Part shown: in pieces, positions 35,571 to 50,193 of the stretch | How the letters are laid out: every line of letters starts with the position of its first letter | Numbering within the stretch: the stretch's first letter is position 1 | Assembly: GCA_017412675.1 (NCBI GenBank) | Contig: JAFPWV010000014.1 | Coordinates: 1-63,307, forward strand | Length of the DNA: 63,307 nt | Source: Clostridia bacterium | GTDB taxonomy: Bacteria; Bacillota; Clostridia; Oscillospirales; CAG-272 | Direction: 5' to 3' | Made by a program: the position numbers and the translations under genes | Notes under the pieces: model-generated | Database searches by the model: none | Told to the model about the DNA's origin: nothing | What the model saw: only the letters and a program-made list of their open reading frames with translations

Positions 35571-35614
35571 CTCCGGATTTTCTAAAATCCCCGGAGATTT
35601 TTTATGAAATCCCC

Positions 35615-35672
35615 TTGACAGCGGGGACGGGATATGCTATAATGCGAAGGTACCTGATCGAAAGGTACCTGA
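35615..35672 (+). promoter_or_regulatory. marR promoter plus a duplicated AGGTACCTGA box (candidate MarR operator)
   Basis: TTGACA (35615-35620), a 17-nt spacer, then TGCTATAAT (-10 at 35638-35643). Two copies of AGGTACCTGA lie at 35648-35657 and 35663-35672. Each contains the 8-bp palindrome AGGTACCT, and their spacing is 15 bp centre to centre. Confidence 0.55.
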
Positions 35673-35716
35673 CAAATCTTGTGCCACGTCGCGCATCGCG
35701 CGGGAAAGGAGTCCCT

Positions 35717-36214
35717 TTGCCAGTCATTGAAGAAGAAATCGTCTGGAAGCTGCGCCGCATCCACGCGATCGGACGGAGAGGCGCGCCGCATCGCCCGGAA
35801 ACCCCGGAGGCCGCAGCCGAGGAACAGCAGAACCACAGCCGCGGGCGCATGATGGGCATCCTCGCGGACCGCGGACCGATGAGCCAGACCGCGCTTGCCG
35901 CCATCCTCGACATCCGCCCGCAGTCCCTCTCGGAGCTCGCCGCCAAGGCGGAGTGCGAGGGATTCGTCTCGCGGGCTCCCTCGGAGGAGGACCGGCGGCA
36001 GACCATCGTCTCCCTCACCGATGCCGGACGCGCCCGTGTTGCGGCATTCCGGGAGGCGCACCGGCGTCATGCCGAAGAATTTCTCGCCCCCCTCAGCGAG
36101 GACGAAAAGAAAACGCTCCGCGTCCTGCTCGACAAGATCATCGAGGGGCAGGAGCCCGAAAAACCAGAACAAAATCCGGAGAGATCCGACAAAACCGAAG
36201 GAGGAGTCGCCTGA
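35717..36214 (+). CDS. MarR family transcriptional regulator
   Basis: Winged-helix core (L....GPMSQTALA..L.IRPQSLSEL..K.E..G.V.R..SEEDRR...V.LT..G). I chose the TTG start at 35717 because AAGGAG lies 5 nt upstream. The longer ORF-track start overlaps queA. Confidence 0.75.
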   Translation: MPVIEEEIVWKLRRIHAIGRRGAPHRPETPEAAAEEQQNHSRGRMMGILADRGPMSQTALAAILDIRPQSLSELAAKAECEGFVSRAPSEEDRRQTIVSLTDAGRARVAAFREAHRRHAEEFLAPLSEDEKKTLRVLLDKIIEGQEPEKPEQNPERSDKTEGGVA

Positions 36215-38256
36215 TGGGACCCGGCGGAGGCTGGCGCGGCCAGCGTGAAAAAATGATCGACAAGCTCAAGGAGCCGAAACCGCAGTCAATACGCGAGGTG
36301 CCGGGATTCCTCTGGCGCGTCGTCTCGAAGTTCTTCTACCGTCTCTTCTATATCTTCCGCATCGTCTGGGACACGAAGCCGTGGATCCTCTTCTTCATGG
36401 TGTTCATGGCGATCTGGAACGGCGTGACGCCCGTCATCAGCGCATACATCGGCGCAGCGCTCCTCAACGTGCTCGCCGCGGCGTTCACCTCCGTGACCAC
36501 GGGCGGGGATATGATGTTCGACGCCGTGATCCGCCTGCTCATCATCCGTTTCGGCTTCAACTTCCTCACGGGACTCGTCGGCCGGATCTCGAGCATCCTC
36601 AACAACATCTCCGGCGAGCTCGTAGTGAACCACGTCAATCTCAAGATCATGCGCAAGGCGCGCGAGGTCGACCTCGCCTCCTTCGACGATCCGGAATTCT
36701 ACGAGCGCTTCGAGAACGCCAAGCGTGAGGCGGGTTCCCGCCCGATCAACATCCTGAACAACAACTTCACGATCATCTCCACCGTCATCAGCATGGTGTC
36801 CTTCATCGTGATCCTCGCCGCGGTCTCCCCGTGGGCGCCGGTCGTCATCGCGCTCATGAGCGTCCCGACGGCCGTCATCAGCTTCGCCTACCGGAAGAAG
36901 AACTTCTGGTACGTGCGCTGGCACTCGAAGGACCGCCGCCAGATGAACTACTACTCCGAGCTCATGACCAACAAGGACATGGTCAAGGAGATCCGCCTCT
37001 TCAACCTCTCCGACAACTTCATCGGGCGGTATCAGGAGACCTTTCTGCGCTATTTCGGCGGACTGAAAAAGCTCTTCATCGGCGAGGGCTGCTGGAACAT
37101 CGGCATCAACCTTCTGACGACGACGATCAACTGCCTGCTCTTCCTCTACATCGCCAAGGGCGTTGCAGAGGGCCGGTACGCGGTCGGCGACTATTCGCTC
37201 TACACAGGCGCGCTCGGCTCCATCGCGGGCGGCATCGGCACGATCATCAACACGACCGCGCAGATCTACGAGGGCACCCTCTTCATCGACAACCTCATCC
37301 GGTTCATGAATGAGAAGCGCACAGTCGTCGCCTCCCTGCCCGCCCCGCGCAAGGTCGCGCACGGCACGGGCCACACGATCGAATTCAAGAACGTGTCCTT
37401 CTCCTATCCCGGCACGGATCGCCGCGTCATCAACAACGTCAACCTGAAGCTCGAGCCGGGCGACACCTGCGTTCTCGTCGGCCTCAACGGCGCGGGCAAG
37501 ACGACGCTCATCAAGCTCCTGACGCGCCTCTACGACCCCACCGAGGGCGAGATCCTCCTCGACGGGTACAACATCAAGGAATACGACACCGACGACCTCT
37601 ACGCGATGTTCGGCATCATCTTCCAGGACTTCGGCAAGTACGCCGTGTCGGTGAAGGAGAACATCCGCTTCGGCCAGCTCGATCGCGACGCCGGGGACGA
37701 GGAGATCGTCGAAGCGGCGGAGCAGTCGACCGCAAGCCAGTTCATCGAAAACCTCCCGGACAAGTACGAGACCCCGCTGATGCGGTACTTCGAGGAAAAC
37801 GGCATCGAGCTCTCGATCGGGCAATGGCAGAAGCTGTCAATCGCGCGCGCGTTCTACTCGGATTCCGACGTCATCATCCTCGACGAGCCGACGGCCTCCC
37901 TCGACGCCATCGCCGAGCAGGACATCTACAACCAGTTTGACCGGCTGCGCAAGGACAAGACCTGCATCTTCGTCTCCCACCGCCTGTCCTCCGCCACGGT
38001 TGCGAACAAGATCATCGTCCTCGAGCAGGGCGCGGTGATCGAGCAGGGGAACCATGCGGAGCTGATGAAAAAGCGCGGGGTGTACTACGAGCTCTTTACG
38101 ACGCAGGCCAAGCGGTACATCACCCCGATCGACGGCGTCTCCGCGGAGGAATTCATGGCCGACGACGAGGACATCGCAAAATTCCTCGACGAGCGCAAGG
38201 ACGGAAGACGTCCGAGAAGACCGGAAGGCCCGCCGGTGCTCGAGGGCGGAAGGTAA
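36214..38256 (+). CDS. ABC transporter, fused permease/ATP-binding protein (exporter type)
   Basis: Six-TM ABC_membrane domain followed by an NBD: Walker A GLNGAGKTT, signature LSIGQWQK and Walker B IIILDEPTA. The ATG at 36214 has a GAAGGAGGAG RBS and overlaps the marR stop. Confidence 0.9.
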   Translation: MGPGGGWRGQREKMIDKLKEPKPQSIREVPGFLWRVVSKFFYRLFYIFRIVWDTKPWILFFMVFMAIWNGVTPVISAYIGAALLNVLAAAFTSVTTGGDMMFDAVIRLLIIRFGFNFLTGLVGRISSILNNISGELVVNHVNLKIMRKAREVDLASFDDPEFYERFENAKREAGSRPINILNNNFTIISTVISMVSFIVILAAVSPWAPVVIALMSVPTAVISFAYRKKNFWYVRWHSKDRRQMNYYSELMTNKDMVKEIRLFNLSDNFIGRYQETFLRYFGGLKKLFIGEGCWNIGINLLTTTINCLLFLYIAKGVAEGRYAVGDYSLYTGALGSIAGGIGTIINTTAQIYEGTLFIDNLIRFMNEKRTVVASLPAPRKVAHGTGHTIEFKNVSFSYPGTDRRVINNVNLKLEPGDTCVLVGLNGAGKTTLIKLLTRLYDPTEGEILLDGYNIKEYDTDDLYAMFGIIFQDFGKYAVSVKENIRFGQLDRDAGDEEIVEAAEQSTASQFIENLPDKYETPLMRYFEENGIELSIGQWQKLSIARAFYSDSDVIILDEPTASLDAIAEQDIYNQFDRLRKDKTCIFVSHRLSSATVANKIIVLEQGAVIEQGNHAELMKKRGVYYELFTTQAKRYITPIDGVSAEEFMADDEDIAKFLDERKDGRRPRRPEGPPVLEGGR

Positions 38257-38280
38257 GGAAAACGAAAGCGAAAATTGAAA

Positions 38281-38307
38281 GAATCCGTCGCTCAGGCGGA
38301 TTTTTTC
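38281..38307 (+). terminator. Rho-independent terminator after the ABC gene
   Basis: AATCCGTC (38282-38289) pairs with GGCGGATT (38295-38302), followed by a run of six T. Confidence 0.75.
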
Positions 38308-38463
38308 TGTACGGGAGGCCGTGCGGCAATTATGTGAAGGTGAAGGAGTACGGATTCCCACGGGCTTCACCCTCGCCATGACCCATCAAGTGCAGCTCAA
38401 CGCCGAAAGGTCAGCGGGAAAATGTCCGGCCTTGGCCCAATTCTGAATTTTCCCGCTTCGGTC

Positions 38464-38943
38464 TCAGCTCATCAGCACGATCACCGAGGCGAACAGAAGC
38501 ACGCTGATGTTTCCCCCTCGCAGCCCTTCCCCGGCGGCAAACAGCCAGAACGCGGCGCATACGGCGTGCGAAACGGTCCGGGCAATCCCGTCCGCGTGAA
38601 AGCCGAGGGGCGTGAGGTGCAGAAGACACGAGAGGATCCCGCCGCCGTCGAGCCCTCTGCAGGGGAGCAGGTTGACCGCCGCGAGGAGGAGCGAGCACCC
38701 GCCGAAGACCTCCCAGCCGTCGATCTCTGCCGCGAGGATCGCCCCGATCACTCCCGCCAGGGGACCCGCTGCATGGACCGCCGCCTCCCGGAGATACCCG
38801 GCGCGGGAGAAATCGAAGGTCAGCCGCAGGCCGCCGATCCCGCCGATGCCGCGCCGCAGAGGGATCCCGAGGAGCCGTGCCGCCGCGAGATGGCCCGCCT
38901 CGTGCAGGATCACCGCCGCCGCGAGCGCGAAAAACCCGCTCAT
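38464..38943 (-). CDS. Minimal site-2 protease (peptidase M50) family membrane metalloprotease
   Basis: 159 aa with HEAGH at residues 14-18 inside TM1 and the second S2P motif NLLPCRGLDGG. About 4 TM segments and no PDZ or CBS domain. Confidence 0.7.
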   Translation of the reverse strand: MSGFFALAAAVILHEAGHLAAARLLGIPLRRGIGGIGGLRLTFDFSRAGYLREAAVHAAGPLAGVIGAILAAEIDGWEVFGGCSLLLAAVNLLPCRGLDGGGILSCLLHLTPLGFHADGIARTVSHAVCAAFWLFAAGEGLRGGNISVLLFASVIVLMS

Positions 38944-38978
38944 ACTAATTCCTTTCCATAAAGAAGCAAACGAAAATT

Positions 38979-39263
38979 CCCCTCATCCGCCCTCCGGGCA
39001 CCCGGTTTCAACTTGTTGAAACCGACCCCACAGGCGGGGGAAGGCAACAAAGAGAGTGTGCAGCATATTTAAAACCGACACCAATTCTCCGTGGAAACCG
39101 TCTTTATTTCTGGAAACGCTGCATGTTATGAGGCTTCCCCCTCCGTGTGGGAAACCGACTTTGCCTTGCAAAGTCGACGAGTTCATTGCCGATGAACTCG
39201 GGCTGTCAATGTAGTGACTGATGAGGGGACTTCATCGCCTTTCATTTACAACGCTTTAAAACA
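38979..39263 (-). repeat. Structured ~285-bp repeat element, copy A (candidate ncRNA or MITE-like element)
   Basis: The reverse complement aligns with 49824-50107. It has a closing inverted repeat CCCCTCATC/GATGAGGGG, three near-perfect hairpins and a long-range GGGGGAAG/CTTCCCCC pairing. It begins 9 nt after the stop of the co-oriented ORF 39273-39605 and ends 35 nt before the S2P start codon. Confidence 0.8.
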
Positions 39264-39272
39264 GATTTCGTA

Positions 39273-39605
39273 TCATTCCCCGCGGATCAGGTTCGCAAAG
39301 AACGTCCCGATCTCATCGAAGACCGACCAGTCCTCCTCGAGAGCGGCATACCGGTCCGGCTGTGCGAGGACGTCCCGCATCCCGTTCTCCGGGACCGCGT
39401 CGGAGGAGACCTGCATGACGGCCACCGCCTCCCGAGACCCGACCGCTGCCTCCCGCCGTTCCCCGCGCGCCACCGGTCCCGCGAGCGCCACCCCGAGCGC
39501 GAGGATCCCGACGGCGAAGAGGACATCCTCCCAGTGGGACCGACGCTTCCCGACTCTTTCGTACCCGACCGTCATTTTCGTATGGATCGCCTCCGTTTCG
39601 TCCAT
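39273..39605 (-). CDS. Hypothetical small single-pass membrane protein
   Basis: 110 aa with one TM segment (VLFAVGILALGVALAGPVA) and an acidic C-terminus. The composition is protein-like, unlike the overlapping S/R/T-rich plus-strand ORF. The RBS is weak. Confidence 0.45.
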   Translation of the reverse strand: MDETEAIHTKMTVGYERVGKRRSHWEDVLFAVGILALGVALAGPVARGERREAAVGSREAVAVMQVSSDAVPENGMRDVLAQPDRYAALEEDWSVFDEIGTFFANLIRGE

Positions 39606-39648
39606 TTTTGACCGTTTCCGCGATGACCTTGTTTTTTTGCCGAATGCA

Positions 39649-39678
39649 TTGACACGCCGCGCGAAAAAGGATTATAAT
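39649..39678 (+). promoter_or_regulatory. Promoter of the cysC/Q-cysD-cysN operon
   Basis: TTGACA (39649-39654), an 18-nt spacer, then TATAAT (39673-39678). The leader is about 45 nt with no riboswitch-sized structure. Confidence 0.6.
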
Positions 39679-39727
39679 GTAGGATGAAGAATTATGGTAT
39701 GAGAGCGGCCCTGCCGCCGGAGAATCT

Positions 39728-41143
39728 ATGACGGAGAACAACCTCACCCCCTACGCTTCCCGAGCGGGCATCCCGGAGCGCATGAAGATCACCGGATCGC
39801 GCCCGGCGGTCTACTGGATGACCGGGCTGTCCGGTTCGGGAAAATCCACCGTCGCCGCGCTGGCGGAAAAGATGCTCGTGGAAGAGGGACGAGCCGCCCT
39901 CATGATCGACGGAGACACCGTCCGCACGGGACTCTGCCGCGGTCTCGGCTTCTCCCCCGAAGACCGTCACGAAAACCTGCGCCGGATCGCGGAGCTGGCA
40001 AAGATCGCCGCGCTCGCCGGTATGACCGTCTTCGTCTGCGCGATCTCGCCGATGGCTGCGGATCGGGAACAGGCGCGCGCGATCCTCTCCCCCGCCGTCC
40101 GGTTCTATGAGGTCTGGATGGCGGCGACCGTCGAGGAATGCGCCGCGCGCGATCCGAAGGGATTGTACCGGAGAGCGTTCGCCGGAGAGATCCGGAACTT
40201 CACCGGGGTCTCCGCGCCGTACGAGCAGCCGGCCGCTCCCGACTTCACCTTCCCCGCGTCGATGTCCGCCGAGGAATGCGCCGCCGTTCTCGTCCGCTCT
40301 GCGCGGGAGGATGACTGGGACCTCGAACGCCTCATGCGCACCATGCTCGATGCGGCTGCCGAAGCCTCCGCCAAGATTATGGAGATCTACGAGAGCACCT
40401 ACGACGTCGCCTACAAAGCGGACAACTCCCCCCTCACCTCCGCCGACACCGCGTCGAACGAGATCCTGACGGGCATCTTCCGCCGCGAATTCCCGGAGTT
40501 CTCGATCCTCTCCGAGGAGGAGGCCGATTCGACCGAGCGGCTCTCGAACAACGCCGGGGTCTTCATCATCGATCCCCTCGACGGGACGAAGGAATTCCTC
40601 TCACACAACGGGGAGTTCTGCGTCTCGATCGGGTTCGCGTCCGGCCATCGAGTCCGTGCGGGCGTCATCGCCGTTCCTGCCCAGAGGCTCTTCTACTATG
40701 CGGCAGAAGGACACGGCGCCTACAAAATGCCCATCGACGGCCTGAAGAAGGACTTCACCGTCGGCGTCGGGGAACGGCTCTCCGTCTCGGACCGCCGGGA
40801 CAAGCTGATCGTCGCGGCCAGCCGCTCGCACGGGGACGCCCAGACCGAGGCGCTCCTCGCGGCGAACGAAGACCGCATCCTCTCGACCGTCACGGCGGGC
40901 TCCTGCCTCAAGGGATGCCTCATCGCCGAGGGCAAAGCGGACATCCACTACCGCTTCGGCGCGTTCATGAAGGAGTGGGACACCGCGGCCATGCAGATCC
41001 TCTGCGAGGAGGCGGGCGCGTCGTTCACCGATCTTCACGGGCGTCCCGTGCGCGCCAACCGCGAGGATCCCGTCAACCGCGACGGCTTCATCATACTCAA
41101 TCACCCGGCGTCCGCGCTGACCATGCCCGACGGGCTGATCTGA
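39728..41143 (+). CDS. cysC: Bifunctional adenylyl-sulfate kinase (N-terminal) / 3'(2'),5'-bisphosphate nucleotidase CysQ-like (C-terminal)
   Basis: The N-terminus has the APS kinase P-loop [12 protein letters not shown] and DGD.VR.GL. The C-terminal ~270 aa has inositol-monophosphatase family motifs ([15 protein letters not shown]). Confidence 0.85.
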
Positions 41144-41210
41144 TCCCCGGCCGCCCGCACTTCTCATTTCCGACCCATCACTTCCATTTCAGAAGGATTC
41201 ATCACACTAT

Positions 41211-42097
41211 ATGCAGTACAGCCACCTCGATATGCTGGAGTCGCGGAGCATCCACATCCTCCGCGAATCGTACTCCGCGTTCAAGAATCTCTGCATGCTC
41301 TGGTCCATCGGAAAGGACTCGACGGTCCTCCTCTGCCTCGCGCGCAAAGCCTTTTACGGACACGTCCCCTTCCCGCTCGTGCATGTGGACACACACTATA
41401 AGATCCCCGAGATGATCGAATACCGCGACCGCCTCGCCATGGCGTGGAACCTCGACATGATCTACGGCGAAAACCGGGAGGCCCTCGATCAGAAGGAGAC
41501 CTTCCCGGACGGACGCGCCACCCGGATCGAATGCTGCCGCCGCCTCAAGACCGAAGCCCTGACGCACACCCTCGCCGGGGACTGGCCGCGGTACCGCCTC
41601 AACCACACGACCGGGCTTTACGAAGTCGACCCGAACCGCGAGCCCTTCACCGGGGTCATTGTCGGCGTGCGCGCGGATGAAGAGGGCAGCCGTTCCAAGG
41701 AGCGGTATTTCAGCCCCCGGGACCGCGCGGGCGACTGGGACGCGGACGATCAGCCCCCGGAATTCTGGGGACAGTACAAGACCGATTTCGCCCCCGGCAC
41801 GCATGTGCGCATCCATCCCCTCCTCGACTGGACCGAGGTGGATATCTGGGAATACATCCGGCGCGAGGGCGTTCCGGTCGTGTCCCTGTACTTCAATCAC
41901 GGCGACGGGAAGCGCTACCGTTCGCTCGGCTGCTGGCCCTGCACCAAGCCGGTGGATTCCGACGCCTCCACGCTCGACGAGATCATCGAGGAGCTGAAAT
42001 CCGGCAAGTTCGCGCGCGTCGCCGAGAGAAGCGGCCGCGAACAGGACAAGGAGGACGGCGGCGGCCTCGAAGAGCTGCGGAGAGGGGGGTATATGTG

Positions 42098-46016: not shown

Positions 46017-49000
46017 ATGGAAAAGAAAAAGAAACTCTACTGTGTTGCGAACGCACACCTCGACACCCAATGGAACTGGACCATCCAGGACACGATCCGC
46101 GACTGTGTGAAGAGCACCCTCGAGCGGAACTTCTACCTGATGGACAAGTATCCGCACTACCGTATGAACTTTGAAGGCGCGTTCCGCTACAAACTGGCGA
46201 AAGAGTACTACCCCGATCTCTACGAAAAGCTGAAGGGCTATATCGCAGAAGGCCGCTGGAACGTCGCGGGCTCCACCTGGGACGCCATGGACGCGAACGT
46301 CCCGTCCTCCGAGGCCCTCATGCGCCAGATCCTCTACGGGAACGGATTCTTTGAAAAGGAATTCGGCAAGAAGAGCACCGATATCTTCCTCACCGACTGC
46401 TTCGGCTTCCGCTATGCCCTGCCCTCCATCGAAGCGCACATGGGTCTGAACGGCTTCTCCACGCAGAAGCTCGTCTGGGGCGTCGGCTCCCCGATCTACA
46501 ACGAAGACGGCACCGTCACCCGTCCCGAACCCGAAGACCGCGACACACCCAGAGAACAGCGCAAGCCGCGCATGGACCTCGGCAAGTGGATCGGCCCGGA
46601 CGGAAAAGGCGTCGCCGTATCCCTCCTCGAGGGCGATTATACCTACAACTTCGACCGCGGCTTCGGTCCCGAGCATCGGACGGACGACCGCCCCGTCGGC
46701 GAGCGTCAGGAATACCTGCGCGCCATCGAGCACAACGAGAAATACACCGGCATCCCGTCCCGCTCCATGTACTTCGGCACGGGCGACTACGGCGGATCCT
46801 GCAAGGAGATCTCTGCGAAGATGCTGAACGAGGCGATCGACAAGAACGGCGAGAACCTCTACGAAGTCATCGCGGCCTCCACGGACGACCTCTTCAACGA
46901 CCTCACGCCCGAGGAATTCGACGCGCTCCCGACCTACGACGGCGAGCTTCTGATCCCGCACGGCTCCGGCGCCGTCACCTCCCACACCATCAACAAGAGA
47001 TGGAACCGCAAGAACGAGCTGCTCGCGGACTCCGCGGAAAGAGCGGCGGTCATGGCGGCATGGCTCGGCGCGTCCGAATACCCGGAGGAGCGCCTCCTCA
47101 CGGCATGGCAGACCTTCCTGTGGCATCAGTTCCACGACGACCTGCCCGGCACCTCCATCGCCGAAGCGTACGTCTTCACCTACAACGATTACGTCATCGC
47201 CCTCAACATGTTCGCGGCGGAGCTGAACAAGGCGGTCGGCGGCGCGGCAAAGGCCCTCGACACCAACGTGAAGGGCACGCCCGTCGTGGTCTACAACCCC
47301 GTCTCCACCGCGCGCAACGACATCGTCACCGTCTCGCCCATCGACATCGACAAGCCGTACGTCCGGGTGTTCGCGCCTTGTGGATGCGAAGTCCCCGCGC
47401 AGTACGACGCCGCGTCGAAGACCTTGAAATTCGCGGCGAAGACCCCCGCGGTCTCCTGCGCCGTCTTTGACATCCAGGCCTCCGACGAGCCCTCTCCGCT
47501 CGCCGCGTCCGTCACGGTCACCGCCCGCACGGTCGAGAACGAGCGCTATCTCGTCACCATCGATGAGAACGGCGACATCGCCTCCATCGTCGACAAGGCG
47601 AACGGCAATCAGGAACTCCTCTCCGCGCCCGCCGGACTCGAGATCGGCCCCGACACCTCGCAGAACTGGCCGTCTTGGGAGCTCGTCTGGACGGATTCCC
47701 TCGAAGAGCCGATCCGCGTGAAGGATGGCGTGAAGATCGAGATCGCGGAGAACGGCCCCGCCGTCTGCTCCCTGAAGATCACCCGCACGCACGGCGGCTC
47801 CACCTTCGAGCAGACCGTGCGCCTCACCGCCGGCGGACAGCGCGTCGACGTGGCCTGCAAGGTCGACTGGTTTGAGAGAGCCTCCAACCTCCGCGCCGCG
47901 TTCCCGCTCGCCGTCTCCAACCCGAAGGCCGCGTTCGACCTCGGGCTCGGCGCGATCGATTCCGGCAACACGGATTCCTTCCCGTACTATCAGCACGTCG
48001 TGCATCAGTGGGCGGACCTCACCGCCGAGGACGGCTCCTATGGTGTCTCGATCCTCAACGATTGCAAGTACGGCATGGACAAGCCGAACGACAACACCCT
48101 CCGCCTCACCCTCATCCACACGCCGCTCGCGCAGTTCTCCCCCGAATCCGGTCAGGACTGGCAGGACATGGGTCTCAACCTCTTCACGTATTCCATCATG
48201 GGTCACAAGGGTCCCCGGACCGGCGAGACCACGAAGGAAGCCGCGGAGCTGAACCAGCCCCAGATGTCCTTCCGTACCTCCCGTCACGGCGGCGCGAAGA
48301 AGGTCCTCTCCCTCGTCTCCGTCTCCGACGACGCGGCGATCATCCGCGCAGTCAAGAAGGACGAAAAAGGCAATCGGATCATCGTCCGCGTCCAGAACAC
48401 CGTCGGCCACGCGCTGAAGGACGTCAAGCTGACCTTTGCGGCCAACCTCACCTCCGTCACCGAGACCAACGGCTACGAGGACGAGATCGAGCCGGTGGCC
48501 TTCGACGGGAACACCCTCACCCTCGACTTCGGCAAGTACGGCGTCCGCACCTTCGCCGTCGAGCTCGAAGCGCCTGCCTGCGCCGTGGCTCCCGTGGAGT
48601 ATGTGCCGCTCGGGGTGCCCGTGGATAAGCGGATCACCTCCTATCAGTTCCGCCTCGATATGGGCGAGTTCGCCAAAGGGATCTCCATCCCCGGCGAGCT
48701 CTGGGAAGAACAGATCGTCTCCTCCGGCGTCCCGTTCTGGCAGCTCCGCGAAGAGATGAAGAACGCCATGACCTGCCGAGGCCAGACGTTCAAGATCCCC
48801 GCGGGCGCAACGAGCGTCTCCGTCCTCGCGGCCTCCGCAAACGGCGACAAGACCGTGACCTTCCGGGCGGGCGGCAAGGAGATCCCCGTCACCGTCCAGG
48901 ACTTCCACGACAACGTCGGCGCGTGGGATCAGCTCGTCAACGGCAAGACCCCGCTCATCAAGCGCGATGAGATCGCGAAGACCTTCACCCATACCCACGA

Positions 49001-49823
49001 CAAGGACGGCGACCGGCTCTACCTGTTCGCGTACCTGTTCCGGTATGAGATCCCGGTCTCGGGCGCGGACAGCCTCACCTTCCCGGACGACGAAGACATC
49101 CTCGTCACGGCTGCGACCGCCTCCTTCGAGACGGACTGTGTCGAGCCGTGGTGCGACCTCTACGACCGGGTCGAGACCTCCGACGCGCCCGTCCACACGC
49201 TGACCCTCATCAACTGCGCGGGCCACGAGACGAAGACCCTCTACCAGACCGGCAAGACCGCCCTCGTCCGCACGAGCCAGTATGACGACGGCTGGGTCTT
49301 CGAGGGCTGGGAAGGCGACTGCATCGCGGCGGTTTACGGCCCCGCGGCGGTCATCAAGATGCCCGATCACGACGTCACCGTGAAGATCAAGGCGGAAAAG
49401 CTCGGCCACGACATCCTCCTGAACAAGCCCGCCACCGCGATCCACGAGTTCAATGAGCGCGAGAAGGCGTGCAATGCCGTCAACGGCAACGACCGGACCA
49501 AGTGGTGCGCCGCGGACGAAAGCGGGAAGCTCTGGCTCACCGTCGACGCCGGGGATGTTTACAAGGTCAACCGCTGGTTCGTCATGCACGGCGGCGCGAT
49601 CGAGAGTCCCGGCTACAACACCCGCGACTTCAGCCTCCAGTACAAGGTGAACGAAGGCGACGAGTGGCAGACCGCGGACACCGTGACCGACAACCACGAC
49701 AACCAGACCCTGCGCGACTTCCCCGCCGTGGAGGGACGGTACTTCCGCCTGTGGGTCGACCGCGCGACCCAGCACCGCGATCCCACCGCAAGAATCTACA
49801 TGTTCCAGGTCTTTGAGGCGTAA
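46017..49823 (+). CDS. GH38 alpha-mannosidase with a C-terminal F5/8 type C (discoidin) domain
   Basis: The N-terminus AHLDTQWNW...DCFG carries GH38 catalytic motifs. Central and C-terminal GH38 domains follow. The last ~150 aa match the discoidin pattern (NGND.TKW......W..VD.G....V.R......GA........F.LQY...G..W). AAGGAG RBS. Confidence 0.9.
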   Translation: MEKKKKLYCVANAHLDTQWNWTIQDTIRDCVKSTLERNFYLMDKYPHYRMNFEGAFRYKLAKEYYPDLYEKLKGYIAEGRWNVAGSTWDAMDANVPSSEALMRQILYGNGFFEKEFGKKSTDIFLTDCFGFRYALPSIEAHMGLNGFSTQKLVWGVGSPIYNEDGTVTRPEPEDRDTPREQRKPRMDLGKWIGPDGKGVAVSLLEGDYTYNFDRGFGPEHRTDDRPVGERQEYLRAIEHNEKYTGIPSRSMYFGTGDYGGSCKEISAKMLNEAIDKNGENLYEVIAASTDDLFNDLTPEEFDALPTYDGELLIPHGSGAVTSHTINKRWNRKNELLADSAERAAVMAAWLGASEYPEERLLTAWQTFLWHQFHDDLPGTSIAEAYVFTYNDYVIALNMFAAELNKAVGGAAKALDTNVKGTPVVVYNPVSTARNDIVTVSPIDIDKPYVRVFAPCGCEVPAQYDAASKTLKFAAKTPAVSCAVFDIQASDEPSPLAASVTVTARTVENERYLVTIDENGDIASIVDKANGNQELLSAPAGLEIGPDTSQNWPSWELVWTDSLEEPIRVKDGVKIEIAENGPAVCSLKITRTHGGSTFEQTVRLTAGGQRVDVACKVDWFERASNLRAAFPLAVSNPKAAFDLGLGAIDSGNTDSFPYYQHVVHQWADLTAEDGSYGVSILNDCKYGMDKPNDNTLRLTLIHTPLAQFSPESGQDWQDMGLNLFTYSIMGHKGPRTGETTKEAAELNQPQMSFRTSRHGGAKKVLSLVSVSDDAAIIRAVKKDEKGNRIIVRVQNTVGHALKDVKLTFAANLTSVTETNGYEDEIEPVAFDGNTLTLDFGKYGVRTFAVELEAPACAVAPVEYVPLGVPVDKRITSYQFRLDMGEFAKGISIPGELWEEQIVSSGVPFWQLREEMKNAMTCRGQTFKIPAGATSVSVLAASANGDKTVTFRAGGKEIPVTVQDFHDNVGAWDQLVNGKTPLIKRDEIAKTFTHTHDKDGDRLYLFAYLFRYEIPVSGADSLTFPDDEDILVTAATASFETDCVEPWCDLYDRVETSDAPVHTLTLINCAGHETKTLYQTGKTALVRTSQYDDGWVFEGWEGDCIAAVYGPAAVIKMPDHDVTVKIKAEKLGHDILLNKPATAIHEFNEREKACNAVNGNDRTKWCAADESGKLWLTVDAGDVYKVNRWFVMHGGAIESPGYNTRDFSLQYKVNEGDEWQTADTVTDNHDNQTLRDFPAVEGRYFRLWVDRATQHRDPTARIYMFQVFEA

Positions 49824-50107
49824 TGCTTTAAATGTTGCAAACGCAAGGCGTTAGCTCCCCTCATCAGTCACTTCGTTGACAGCCCGAGTTCATCGGCGAT
49901 GAACTCGTCGACTTTGCAAGGCAAAGTCGGTTTCCCACACGGAGGGGGAAGCCTCACAACATGCAGCGTTTCCGAAAATGAAGACGGTTTCCATAAAAAA
50001 TTGGTGCCTGTTTCAGAAACGCGATGCACTTATTTAAATGCCTTCCCCCTTGGGCGGGTCGGTTTCAACAGGTTGAAACCGGGTGCCCTGATAGGGCGGA
50101 TGAGGGG
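49824..50107 (+). repeat. Structured ~285-bp repeat element, copy B (candidate ncRNA or MITE-like element)
   Basis: It begins at the nucleotide after the GH38 stop codon. Closing helix: 49857-49865 with 50099-50107. Hairpins: 49886-49906, 49909-49929 and 50060-50081. Long-range pairing: 49944-49951 with 50042-50049. Confidence 0.8.
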
Positions 50108-50193
50108 GAGCGAACGGCTCTTGATCGCTATATCAGCATAAAACAGCGAATTCTTAGAAAAATTAAGTCTTTGTTAGAAACCCCGTCAATCCC

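Follow-up and report, generated by a model that had tools for sequence, protein, structure and literature searches.

A very probable new family of miniature transposable elements, one copy of which separates a small reading frame from a mini site-2 protease gene in an uncultured rumen clostridial genome

The locus and its repeated element

We examined a 63,307-nt stretch of a Clostridia bacterium genome (GenBank assembly GCA_017412675.1, contig JAFPWV010000014.1, positions 1 to 63,307; hereafter the window), an unremarkable piece of chromosome, 63% G+C, from a spore-forming Clostridium. On its minus strand, an open reading frame (ORF) of 110 amino acids (39273-39605, minus strand, without a Pfam family) is followed by a gene for a mini site-2 protease (S2P; 38464-38943, minus strand, 159 amino acids, Peptidase_M50, with the HEAGH residues 14-18 near the N-terminus), and between the two lies a palindrome-rich element that the initial annotation read, together with a second copy elsewhere in the window, as a structured RNA under selection. 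We interpret this element as, very probably, a MITE (miniature inverted-repeat transposable element) of a new family in uncultured rumen Clostridia, possibly moved by an IS5/Harbinger-like transposase and passively co-transcribed with the S2P gene.

Searching the whole window by blastn with positions 38901-39300 recovered exactly one other copy, on the opposite strand: 49824-50107 aligns with the reverse complement of 38979-39263 over 288 columns, with 84.0% identity and E=9e-83. Pairwise alignment revealed the same bases in 113 of 117 columns of the 5' block from CCCCTCATC to GCGTTTCC (4 differences), in 43 of 66 columns of the centre (65%), in 59 of 69 columns of the 3' block (86%) and in 21 of 36 columns of the roughly 35 nt located 5' of the closing helix (58%), so the inverted copy and the block pattern described for it by eye both held. 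Its limits were too narrow, as similarity extends past the closing helix on both sides and the full copy A spans 38943-39272, with ends set by an empty site in a related locus (L015, below) and by other copies; the profile match for this copy runs from 39266 to 38943 (nhmmer, E=8.5e-102). Copy A thus begins directly after the stop codon of the upstream ORF, where a gap of 9 nt had been described, and ends on the A of the S2P ATG, where 35 nt had been thought to intervene. The inverted-repeat arms include, as their inner portion, what had been called the closing helix (CCCCTCATC/GATGAGGGG), and the similar stretch of about 35 nt on its 5' side sits inside the 5' arm. The parts of copy A, in the 5' to 3' direction of the minus strand, and the limits of copy B are as follows.

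39273-39275, minus strand: left target-site duplication TGA, the stop codon of the 110-amino-acid ORF
38943-39272, minus strand: copy A, the full putative mobile unit, 330 bp
39229-39272, minus strand: 5' arm (left inverted-repeat arm, tip TAC), pairing with the 3' arm in the full-length fold
38979-39228, minus strand: palindrome-rich core, the part considered below for its folds and for stem versus loop variation
39220-39228 and 38979-38987, minus strand: closing inverted repeat
39205-39218, minus strand: hairpin P2
39178-39200, minus strand: hairpin P3
39156-39176, minus strand: hairpin P4
39134-39151 and 39027-39043, minus strand: long helix P5
39044-39133, minus strand: variable centre
39003-39024, minus strand: hairpin P6
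38989-38999, minus strand: hairpin P7
38943-38978, minus strand: 3' arm (right inverted-repeat arm, tip GTA)
38950-38957, minus strand: Shine-Dalgarno-like GGAAAGGA within the 3' arm, 6 nt before the S2P ATG
38940-38942, minus strand: right target-site duplication TGA, whose TG forms the S2P ATG with the element's last A (38943)
49824-50138, plus strand: copy B, the full putative mobile unit, 315 bp
49821-49823 and 50139-50141: duplications TAA flanking copy B, the left one being the stop codon of the GH38 gene

Family members range from 264 to 330 bp and have a G+C content of 48-52% (48% for copy A) against the 63% of the window.

The ORF-S2P junction in related species

The ORF and the 159-amino-acid M50 protease form a two-gene module that is kept in at least five rumen Clostridia species (L015, 2815-3614), in a layout that recalls inhibitor-protease pairs such as SpoIVFA/SpoIVFB. 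Read base by base in L015, a locus whose CysC-CysQ neighbour protein is 88% identical in amino acids to that of the window, the ORF ends CGC GGG GAA TGA and S2P starts in the same ATGA, with neither spacer nor element (...GGGGAATGACCGGTCTG...; ...GGGGAATGACCGGTCTGTTCGCGCTCGCGG), and the TGA is present once at this empty site (GGGGAATGACCGG). Comparison by tblastn placed the end of the ORF exactly at the start of S2P in L016 and L017 as well as in L015, and within 6 nt of it in L018, and an nhmmer profile found no copy of the element in any of the four loci. In the window, the same flanks stand 333 bp apart and read GGGGAA TGA, the element (TACGAAATC ... AATTAGTA) and TGA GCGGGTTTTTCGCGCTCGCGG, such that deleting 38943-39272 plus one TGA leaves a junction exactly as long as that of L015. 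Because the same junction is element-free in four related species, copy A is a 330-bp insertion relative to these sister species. The initial annotation had taken the shared placement of both copies, just after a co-oriented ORF, as a sign of function; this runs against the absence of the element from the same junction in these species, and the shared placement follows from the T-N-A targets having been stop codons (TGA at copy A, TAA at copy B) that were duplicated so that the ORF keeps its stop.

The start of S2P was restored at its original position (MSGFFALAAAVILHEAGH in the window vs MTGLFALAAAVLLHEAGH in L015), since the terminal A of the element (38943) and the duplicated TGA rebuild the ATGA and with it the start codon. 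The overlap in L015 suggests translational coupling of the two genes, and we take it as the ancestral arrangement. From this state, the element would have landed on the TGA of the overlap, with the left TGA copy keeping the ORF stop, the terminal A and the right TGA copy recreating the S2P ATG, and GGAAAGGA in the 3' arm presumably taking over from translational coupling as the ribosome-binding site. With the stop kept, the ATG rebuilt and a Shine-Dalgarno-like sequence supplied, the insertion would be tolerated.

Scanning the sense strand of copy A revealed neither a sigma-70-like promoter nor a terminator, in line with the initial annotation, which had seen no room for a separate promoter before the protease gene. 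We also considered a promoter within the element that drives S2P and rejected it, as none lies on the sense strand and the ATG straddles the element end, leaving no room. Both the S2P start codon and the gene's sole Shine-Dalgarno-like sequence fall within copy A or on its border. Given the empty scan and the straddling ATG, we infer that co-transcription with the upstream ORF is the only obvious route to S2P expression, and at present the element would be an obligatory, strongly folding 330-nt intercistronic part of an ORF-S2P transcript. A seemingly coupled gene pair would thereby have become two cistrons set 330 nt of stable structure apart, which may change S2P dosage. The locus also illustrates, in a clean natural case, that insertion at TNA can leave a stop codon, or even an ATGA stop/start overlap, unharmed: the duplicated triplet gives back the stop, and the final A of the element gives back the ATG.

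Dispersed copies and target-site duplications

To the two copies in the window, a metagenome scan with an invariant 19-mer added 7 further contigs carrying the element, all with 62-63% G+C, and together these metagenome contigs contain at least 5 further sites. The nearest genomes are metagenome-assembled genomes (MAGs) of uncultured rumen Clostridia from sheep and water buffalo (RGIG6935, RGIG7980, RUG12898). Every short-read contig that encodes the identical S2P or ORF protein either includes the element or breaks off within it, and about half of the short-read contigs with the flanking genes end within it, as they do at copy B. Multi-copy repeats behave in this way, and short-read assemblies from this rumen Clostridia lineage are broken by the family, which matters for binning and synteny analyses.

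At seven independent sites, an identical 3-bp duplication stands on both sides of the element and is always TNA.

Copy A: TGA, the stop codon of the 110-amino-acid ORF
Copy B: TAA, the stop that ends the GH38 alpha-mannosidase gene (46017-49823)
Copy C (L077): TCA, which on the other strand is the TGA that ends a GNAT acetyltransferase gene, the copy being antisense
L073: TTA, not a stop codon
L075: TGA, not serving as a stop codon
L079: TAA, with which the upstream gene ends (stop codon)
MarR-upstream site (left junction in L078, right junction in L076): TGA, in the MarR 5' leader

Stop codons thus make up 4 of the 7 duplications, and for so few sites a preference of insertions for stop codons is suggestive only. 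Empty sites were seen for 2 of the 7. Taken together, the seven matching TNA duplications and the two empty sites point to DNA transposition, cut-and-paste or replicative, with a 3-nt staggered cut. On the left, the element begins with 5'-TAC (or TAT, TTC, TGC); on the right, it ends with GTA-3' (GCA in copy B). These tips and the subterminal repeat CCCCTCATC/GATGAGGGG are conserved. The arms form imperfect inverted repeats, which the terminal 20 nt or so show most clearly in the C-type copy (TACTTTTGTTCTTCTAAA vs the reverse-complemented other end, TACTGTTTTCTGTCTGAA); within this C-type subfamily, the 3' arms are about 90% conserved.

The second empty site is the one upstream of MarR, which is filled in L076 and L078 (97-98% identical to the window) and empty in the window, where the target TGA (35671-35673, plus strand) lies between the MarR promoter (consensus TTGACA ... 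TATAAT at about 35614-35644) and the MarR gene. After this TGA, the window reads CAAATCTTGTGC where L076 reads GCAT, and the stretch resembles the 5' tip of the element (TACGAAATCTGT); it could be an excision footprint.

Module changes, hybrids and rearrangements

Orthologous sites revealed that the element also changes in place. In GCA_024680525.1, the copy B site is filled by a variant without P3 and P4 (L110, 836-1099, contig JAILCF010000160.1), in which the 49-50 nt holding these hairpins are missing and the 3' tip reads TTAGTA vs TCAGCA in the window, so hairpin modules are gained, lost or converted at a fixed site. P3 and P4 are likewise missing from copy C and L079, and P6 is missing from L075 and L076b. 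Between the window and GCA_024680525.1, divergence amounts to 1.9% of sites in copy B, 1.6-2.1% in its flanking genes and 4.4% in the intergenic region that follows, on counts that are too small to show constraint.

Several copies are hybrids or stand at rearranged junctions. The copy in L001 (2700-3004) combines a copy-C 5' half lacking P3 and P4 with a copy-A 3' half and joins the locus of dpaA-dpaB and a 512-amino-acid sigma-70-like gene to the S2P gene, and L077 (1052-1328) holds the unrecombined copy C. Two inverted copies in L076 (1-5994, vs 35685-41434 of the window) enclose a MarR-ABC transporter-S2P block that runs the opposite way to that of the window, with a hybrid at the junction; this reflects either a real repeat-mediated inversion or an assembly chimera. 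In L078, the left flank of the MarR-upstream site is joined to the right flank of the L073 site. The hybrids and the module polymorphism at copy B suggest that recombination or gene conversion between copies is real. Under such exchange, copies would give rise to hybrids, gain and lose hairpin modules and probably mediate inversions between one another, and the family probably drives rearrangements such as the MarR-ABC-S2P inversion and the hybrid junctions.

The most divergent copy (L074, 1249-1691) has an unalignable centre; its P6 slot carries a hairpin with P3 arm sequence (GAGTTCATC/GATGAACTC), its P7 has changed compensatorily, and a second partial copy directly adjoins it (1377-1249, E=1e-11). 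In L075, a perfect-looking palindrome of about 114 nt (1087-1200) matches a plant microRNA precursor model on both strands below threshold, and it is probably another hairpin repeat of the same lineage.

Folding, constraint and possible host roles

Copies A and B fold strongly, with minimum free energies of -112.4 and -117.1 kcal/mol (z = -5.2 and -5.6 vs shuffled sequence), and both folds have the three perfect hairpins and the two helices (the closing one and GGGGGAAG/CUUCCCCC) that the initial annotation had proposed. The same strength was found on the opposite strand of copy A (-107.4 kcal/mol, z = -5.9). Of eight distinct copies, to which the counts in this paragraph refer, 6 reach the same or a lower minimum free energy in antisense, the two strands have similar G-U counts in all but copy A, and no strand preference in folding emerges. 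The partner proposed for TGCAGC was recovered in each single-sequence fold; over the eight copies, this central helix is the worst supported of all, with 84% paired cells and with 7 of its 12 pairs departing via unpaired cells only. Invariant pairs account for 48 of the 77 predicted, and the RNAalifold covariation term of +2.89 is a penalty. Pairs changed on both sides number 6 of 77, whereas column shuffles give 2.7 +/- 1.3 (with 6 attained in 15 of 500), an excess that relatedness alone may inflate in eight closely related sequences. The claim that a dedicated RNA motif keeps these helices under selection is therefore not supported, given helices that are almost all invariant, weak covariation and the lack of strand preference. 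The local hairpins are perfect Watson-Crick palindromes, and the RNA-like architecture follows from the inverted-repeat arms and this string of palindromes. We conclude that the palindromes are under some constraint, be it on DNA or RNA; for a dedicated RNA gene, there is no evidence.

A number of observations weigh against a simple MITE. The window has no transposase among its 50 genes, and searches for an autonomous element sharing these ends came up empty there and in about 277 kb of related loci (in both, fuzzy matching of all six arm sequences returned only known copies), as well as among GTDB representatives, where hits were at chance level. IS5-family tips are GA/GG, and those found here are TAC...GTA. 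The terminal inverted repeats are moderate, such that copy B, L079 and L073 score no better than shuffles, and the arms, pooled over subfamilies, are more variable than the core (67-83% vs 16-18% variable columns), opposite to what a textbook MITE shows. For several hybrid copies, chimeric assembly across the repeat could be the origin. Five hairpin stems are near-invariant while their loops vary (2-3 of 74 vs 14 of 19 variable columns), and at 8 of 9 sites the element lies in sense with local transcription, neither of which an unconstrained selfish repeat would predict. Read in antisense, copy A has at 39219-39237 (plus strand) a terminator-like hairpin, made of its 5' arm and closing repeat, with CCTTTCATTT coming next; if functional, it could lead to counter-selection of antisense operon insertions and so explain the sense bias.

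The stem conservation and the sense bias bear on an exapted MITE, that is, a mobile element whose palindromic core is kept by selection, whether as RNA (a cis stabiliser, a processing site for RNase III/Mini-III or an attenuator of the downstream cistron) or as DNA (a palindromic site cluster for a dimeric regulator). The stem-loop contrast (Fisher p about 1e-10, from manual column counts in up to ten copies), the sense orientation of 8 of 9 sites, a core more conserved than the arms, a both-side pair count slightly above shuffles (6 vs 2.7) and the L074 copy, with its different-sequence hairpin in the P6 slot and compensatory P7, all fit such selection. Against them stand the lack of a family-wide strand asymmetry in folding or G-U content, the 48 invariant pairs and the RNAalifold penalty, the dispensability of P3 and P4 or of P6 (for P3 and P4 even at the orthologous copy B site) and the related species that have the same genes without the element. 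Moreover, young repeats and hairpin self-correction can mimic stem conservation, and related sequences exceed shuffles even without structure. We therefore consider exaptation unlikely, and hold similarly low expectations that the palindromic core does something for the host, as stem conservation and orientation bias might suggest. It is equally improbable that the transposon is a vehicle for a selected module whose palindromes (CGAGTTCATC/GATGAACTCG, CGACTTTGC/GCAAAGTCG and CGGTTTCAAC/GTTGAAACCG) and long helices act on the host. Were it true, the element would be a portable intercistronic RNA controlling how stable downstream cistrons (here mini-S2P) are or how well they are translated, or alternatively a portable operator cluster for a dimeric DNA-binding protein, and the sense bias and stop-codon landing sites would reflect selection for a host role.

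Transposase class and relation to known elements

For the MITE that we favour, movement would require a transposase acting in trans that makes a 3-nt staggered cut at TNA and joins the tips 5'-TAC...GTA-3', with repair duplicating the TNA. IS1031-type elements prefer TNA. Three-nucleotide target recognition has been described for the IS1031 group of IS5 (PMC2516522), and 3-bp TWA/TNA duplications for the PIF/Harbinger-IS5 superfamily (PMC4482050). From the duplication alone, we tentatively propose a DDE transposase of the IS5 (IS1031/IS427-like) or PIF-Harbinger kind, an assignment that we would put somewhat below an even chance: the 3-bp T-N-A/T-W-A duplication is shared with both groups, and the element here differs from them in its tips and in having no transposase gene found with it. 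A TA-duplication model (IS630/Tc1-like) was rejected, as it predicts an empty site 5 nt longer than that of L015. We also followed up a suspected insertion sequence beside copy C, where L001 has an extra 1,370 bp (1226-2595, vs 1439-1454 in L077), and found an internal deletion in L077 and not a transposase; the gene deleted from L077 is the 512-amino-acid sigma-70-like one, with weak Sigma70_r2/r4_2 Pfam hits only.

Movement by an HUH/Y1 transposase (as an IS200/IS605-type PATE or REPIN-like unit) or by a site-specific recombinase is a very unlikely alternative. IS200/IS605 elements and REPINs make no target duplication and insert beside a fixed tetra- or pentanucleotide; the latter are about 100 nt long and depend on a RAYT (Y1) transposase. 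The present family does have subterminal hairpins and inverted repeats conserved 35-45 nt from each tip, an orientation bias and positions just past stop codons, and it shares with REP/REPIN sequences the palindromic hairpins in that position and the conserved stems with variable loops (PMC3184786). Set against this, its trinucleotide varies (TGA, TAA, TCA, TTA) and matches on both sides at 7 of 7 sites, empty sites hold it once, the unit is 264-330 bp long, and no TnpA, RAYT, TnpB or recombinase gene was seen nearby. This true duplication, matching on both sides with a variable middle base, led us to reject the IS200/IS605- or REPIN-type model.

By size (MITEs being shorter than about 600 bp), lack of coding capacity, target duplications, dispersed copies and presence/absence polymorphism, the family has the properties used to recognize MITEs. 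Correia and RUP elements duplicate TA. Like the bacterial MITEs Correia/NEMIS, RUP, Nezha, Chunjie and QMITE, the element is small, non-coding and A+T-richer than its surroundings, with short direct duplications, intergenic positions and empty orthologous sites; its inverted-repeat ends are clear in the C-type copy and weaker in several others. MITEs have been described as A+T-rich, intergenic and flanked by direct repeats, with very stable transcript folds (PMC10969869; PMC3184786), and the bacterial ones resemble our copies in the predicted folding energies of their transcripts, about -100 to -130 kcal/mol (PMC3184786, PMC10969869). Chunjie is cited as sitting in an operon without disturbing it (Chen et al. 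2008, as summarized in PMC3184786), and copy A also sits inside an operon. The family differs from Chunjie in its 3-bp TNA duplication, against 9 bp (PMC3184786), and from bacterial MITEs generally in its modular palindrome string, weak terminal repeats and lack of a known parent insertion sequence; no sequence similarity to any of them was seen, though no comparison aimed at it was made.

The modular build recalls the BOX elements of Streptococcus pneumoniae, with which the family shares modular intergenic hairpins in variable number between conserved ends, co-transcription with neighbours (presumed here) and a MITE-like classification (PMC3184786 table; PMC10969869). The sequences are unrelated and the host lineages differ. 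To our knowledge, BOX elements lack a consistent target duplication.

Searches for known RNAs and proteins

Rfam 15 yielded no match over the whole window at gathering scores, noise only within copy A at E ≤ 10 and nothing inside four other copies at E ≤ 1. Four patterns were looked for in 185,579 GTDB species representatives: P6, both exact and with its loop left free, the 3' tip, and the 19-mer of P5 that is invariant. Hits were zero or at chance level; phage and plasmid collections gave no match (blastn distant mode), and one scan of viral contigs found nothing. Being absent from Rfam, the GTDB representatives, phages and plasmids, the family appears to be undescribed.

These searches also bear on a dedicated structured RNA, cis-regulatory or non-coding, with two paralogous copies functionally placed after ORFs, which is very improbable and which the empty sites largely refute. 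Its appeal came from the strong folds (z about -5), the conserved 5' and 3' blocks around a diverged centre and the co-orientation of both window copies with the upstream ORF. Copies A and B also have the length of 250-330 nt and the multi-stem junction look of large Rfam non-coding RNAs (raiA, HEARO/omega RNA, OLE, ROOL, 6S, SRP); unlike these, they show no covariance-model match even at E ≤ 10, no phylogenetic conservation and no strand asymmetry. Besides the empty sites, the target duplications, dispersed polymorphic copies and contig breaks speak against it, as do the absence of any Rfam match or GTDB hit with the four patterns, the antisense strand folding equally well and the central helix being the least supported. 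A convincing "large structured RNA" has thus turned out, very probably, to be a mobile repeat, and screens for non-coding RNA in MAGs would do well to check empty sites and target duplications first.

A small protein can be practically discounted: ORFs starting MNSSTLQGKVGFPHGGGSL are present in both copies (67 amino acids at 38983-39186, minus strand, in copy A and 80 at 49899-50141 in copy B), and against coding stand the absence of a homologue among 5.8 billion proteins, frames that part after about 45 residues, an ATG in hairpin P3 that is deleted in copy C, L079 and L110, and the lack of a Shine-Dalgarno sequence.

Neighbourhood of the window

The Pfam-assigned genes of the window include Era, YbeY, PhoH, YqfD, RecO, MutS2, CysC/D/N, homoserine dehydrogenase and GH38. 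Close to the ORF-S2P pair, a perfect sigma-70 consensus promoter (12 of 12 positions; TTGACA, 18 nt, TATAAT) is located at 39649-39678 on the plus strand, upstream of a fused APS-kinase/CysQ-like gene (39728-41143) and divergent from the 110-amino-acid ORF.

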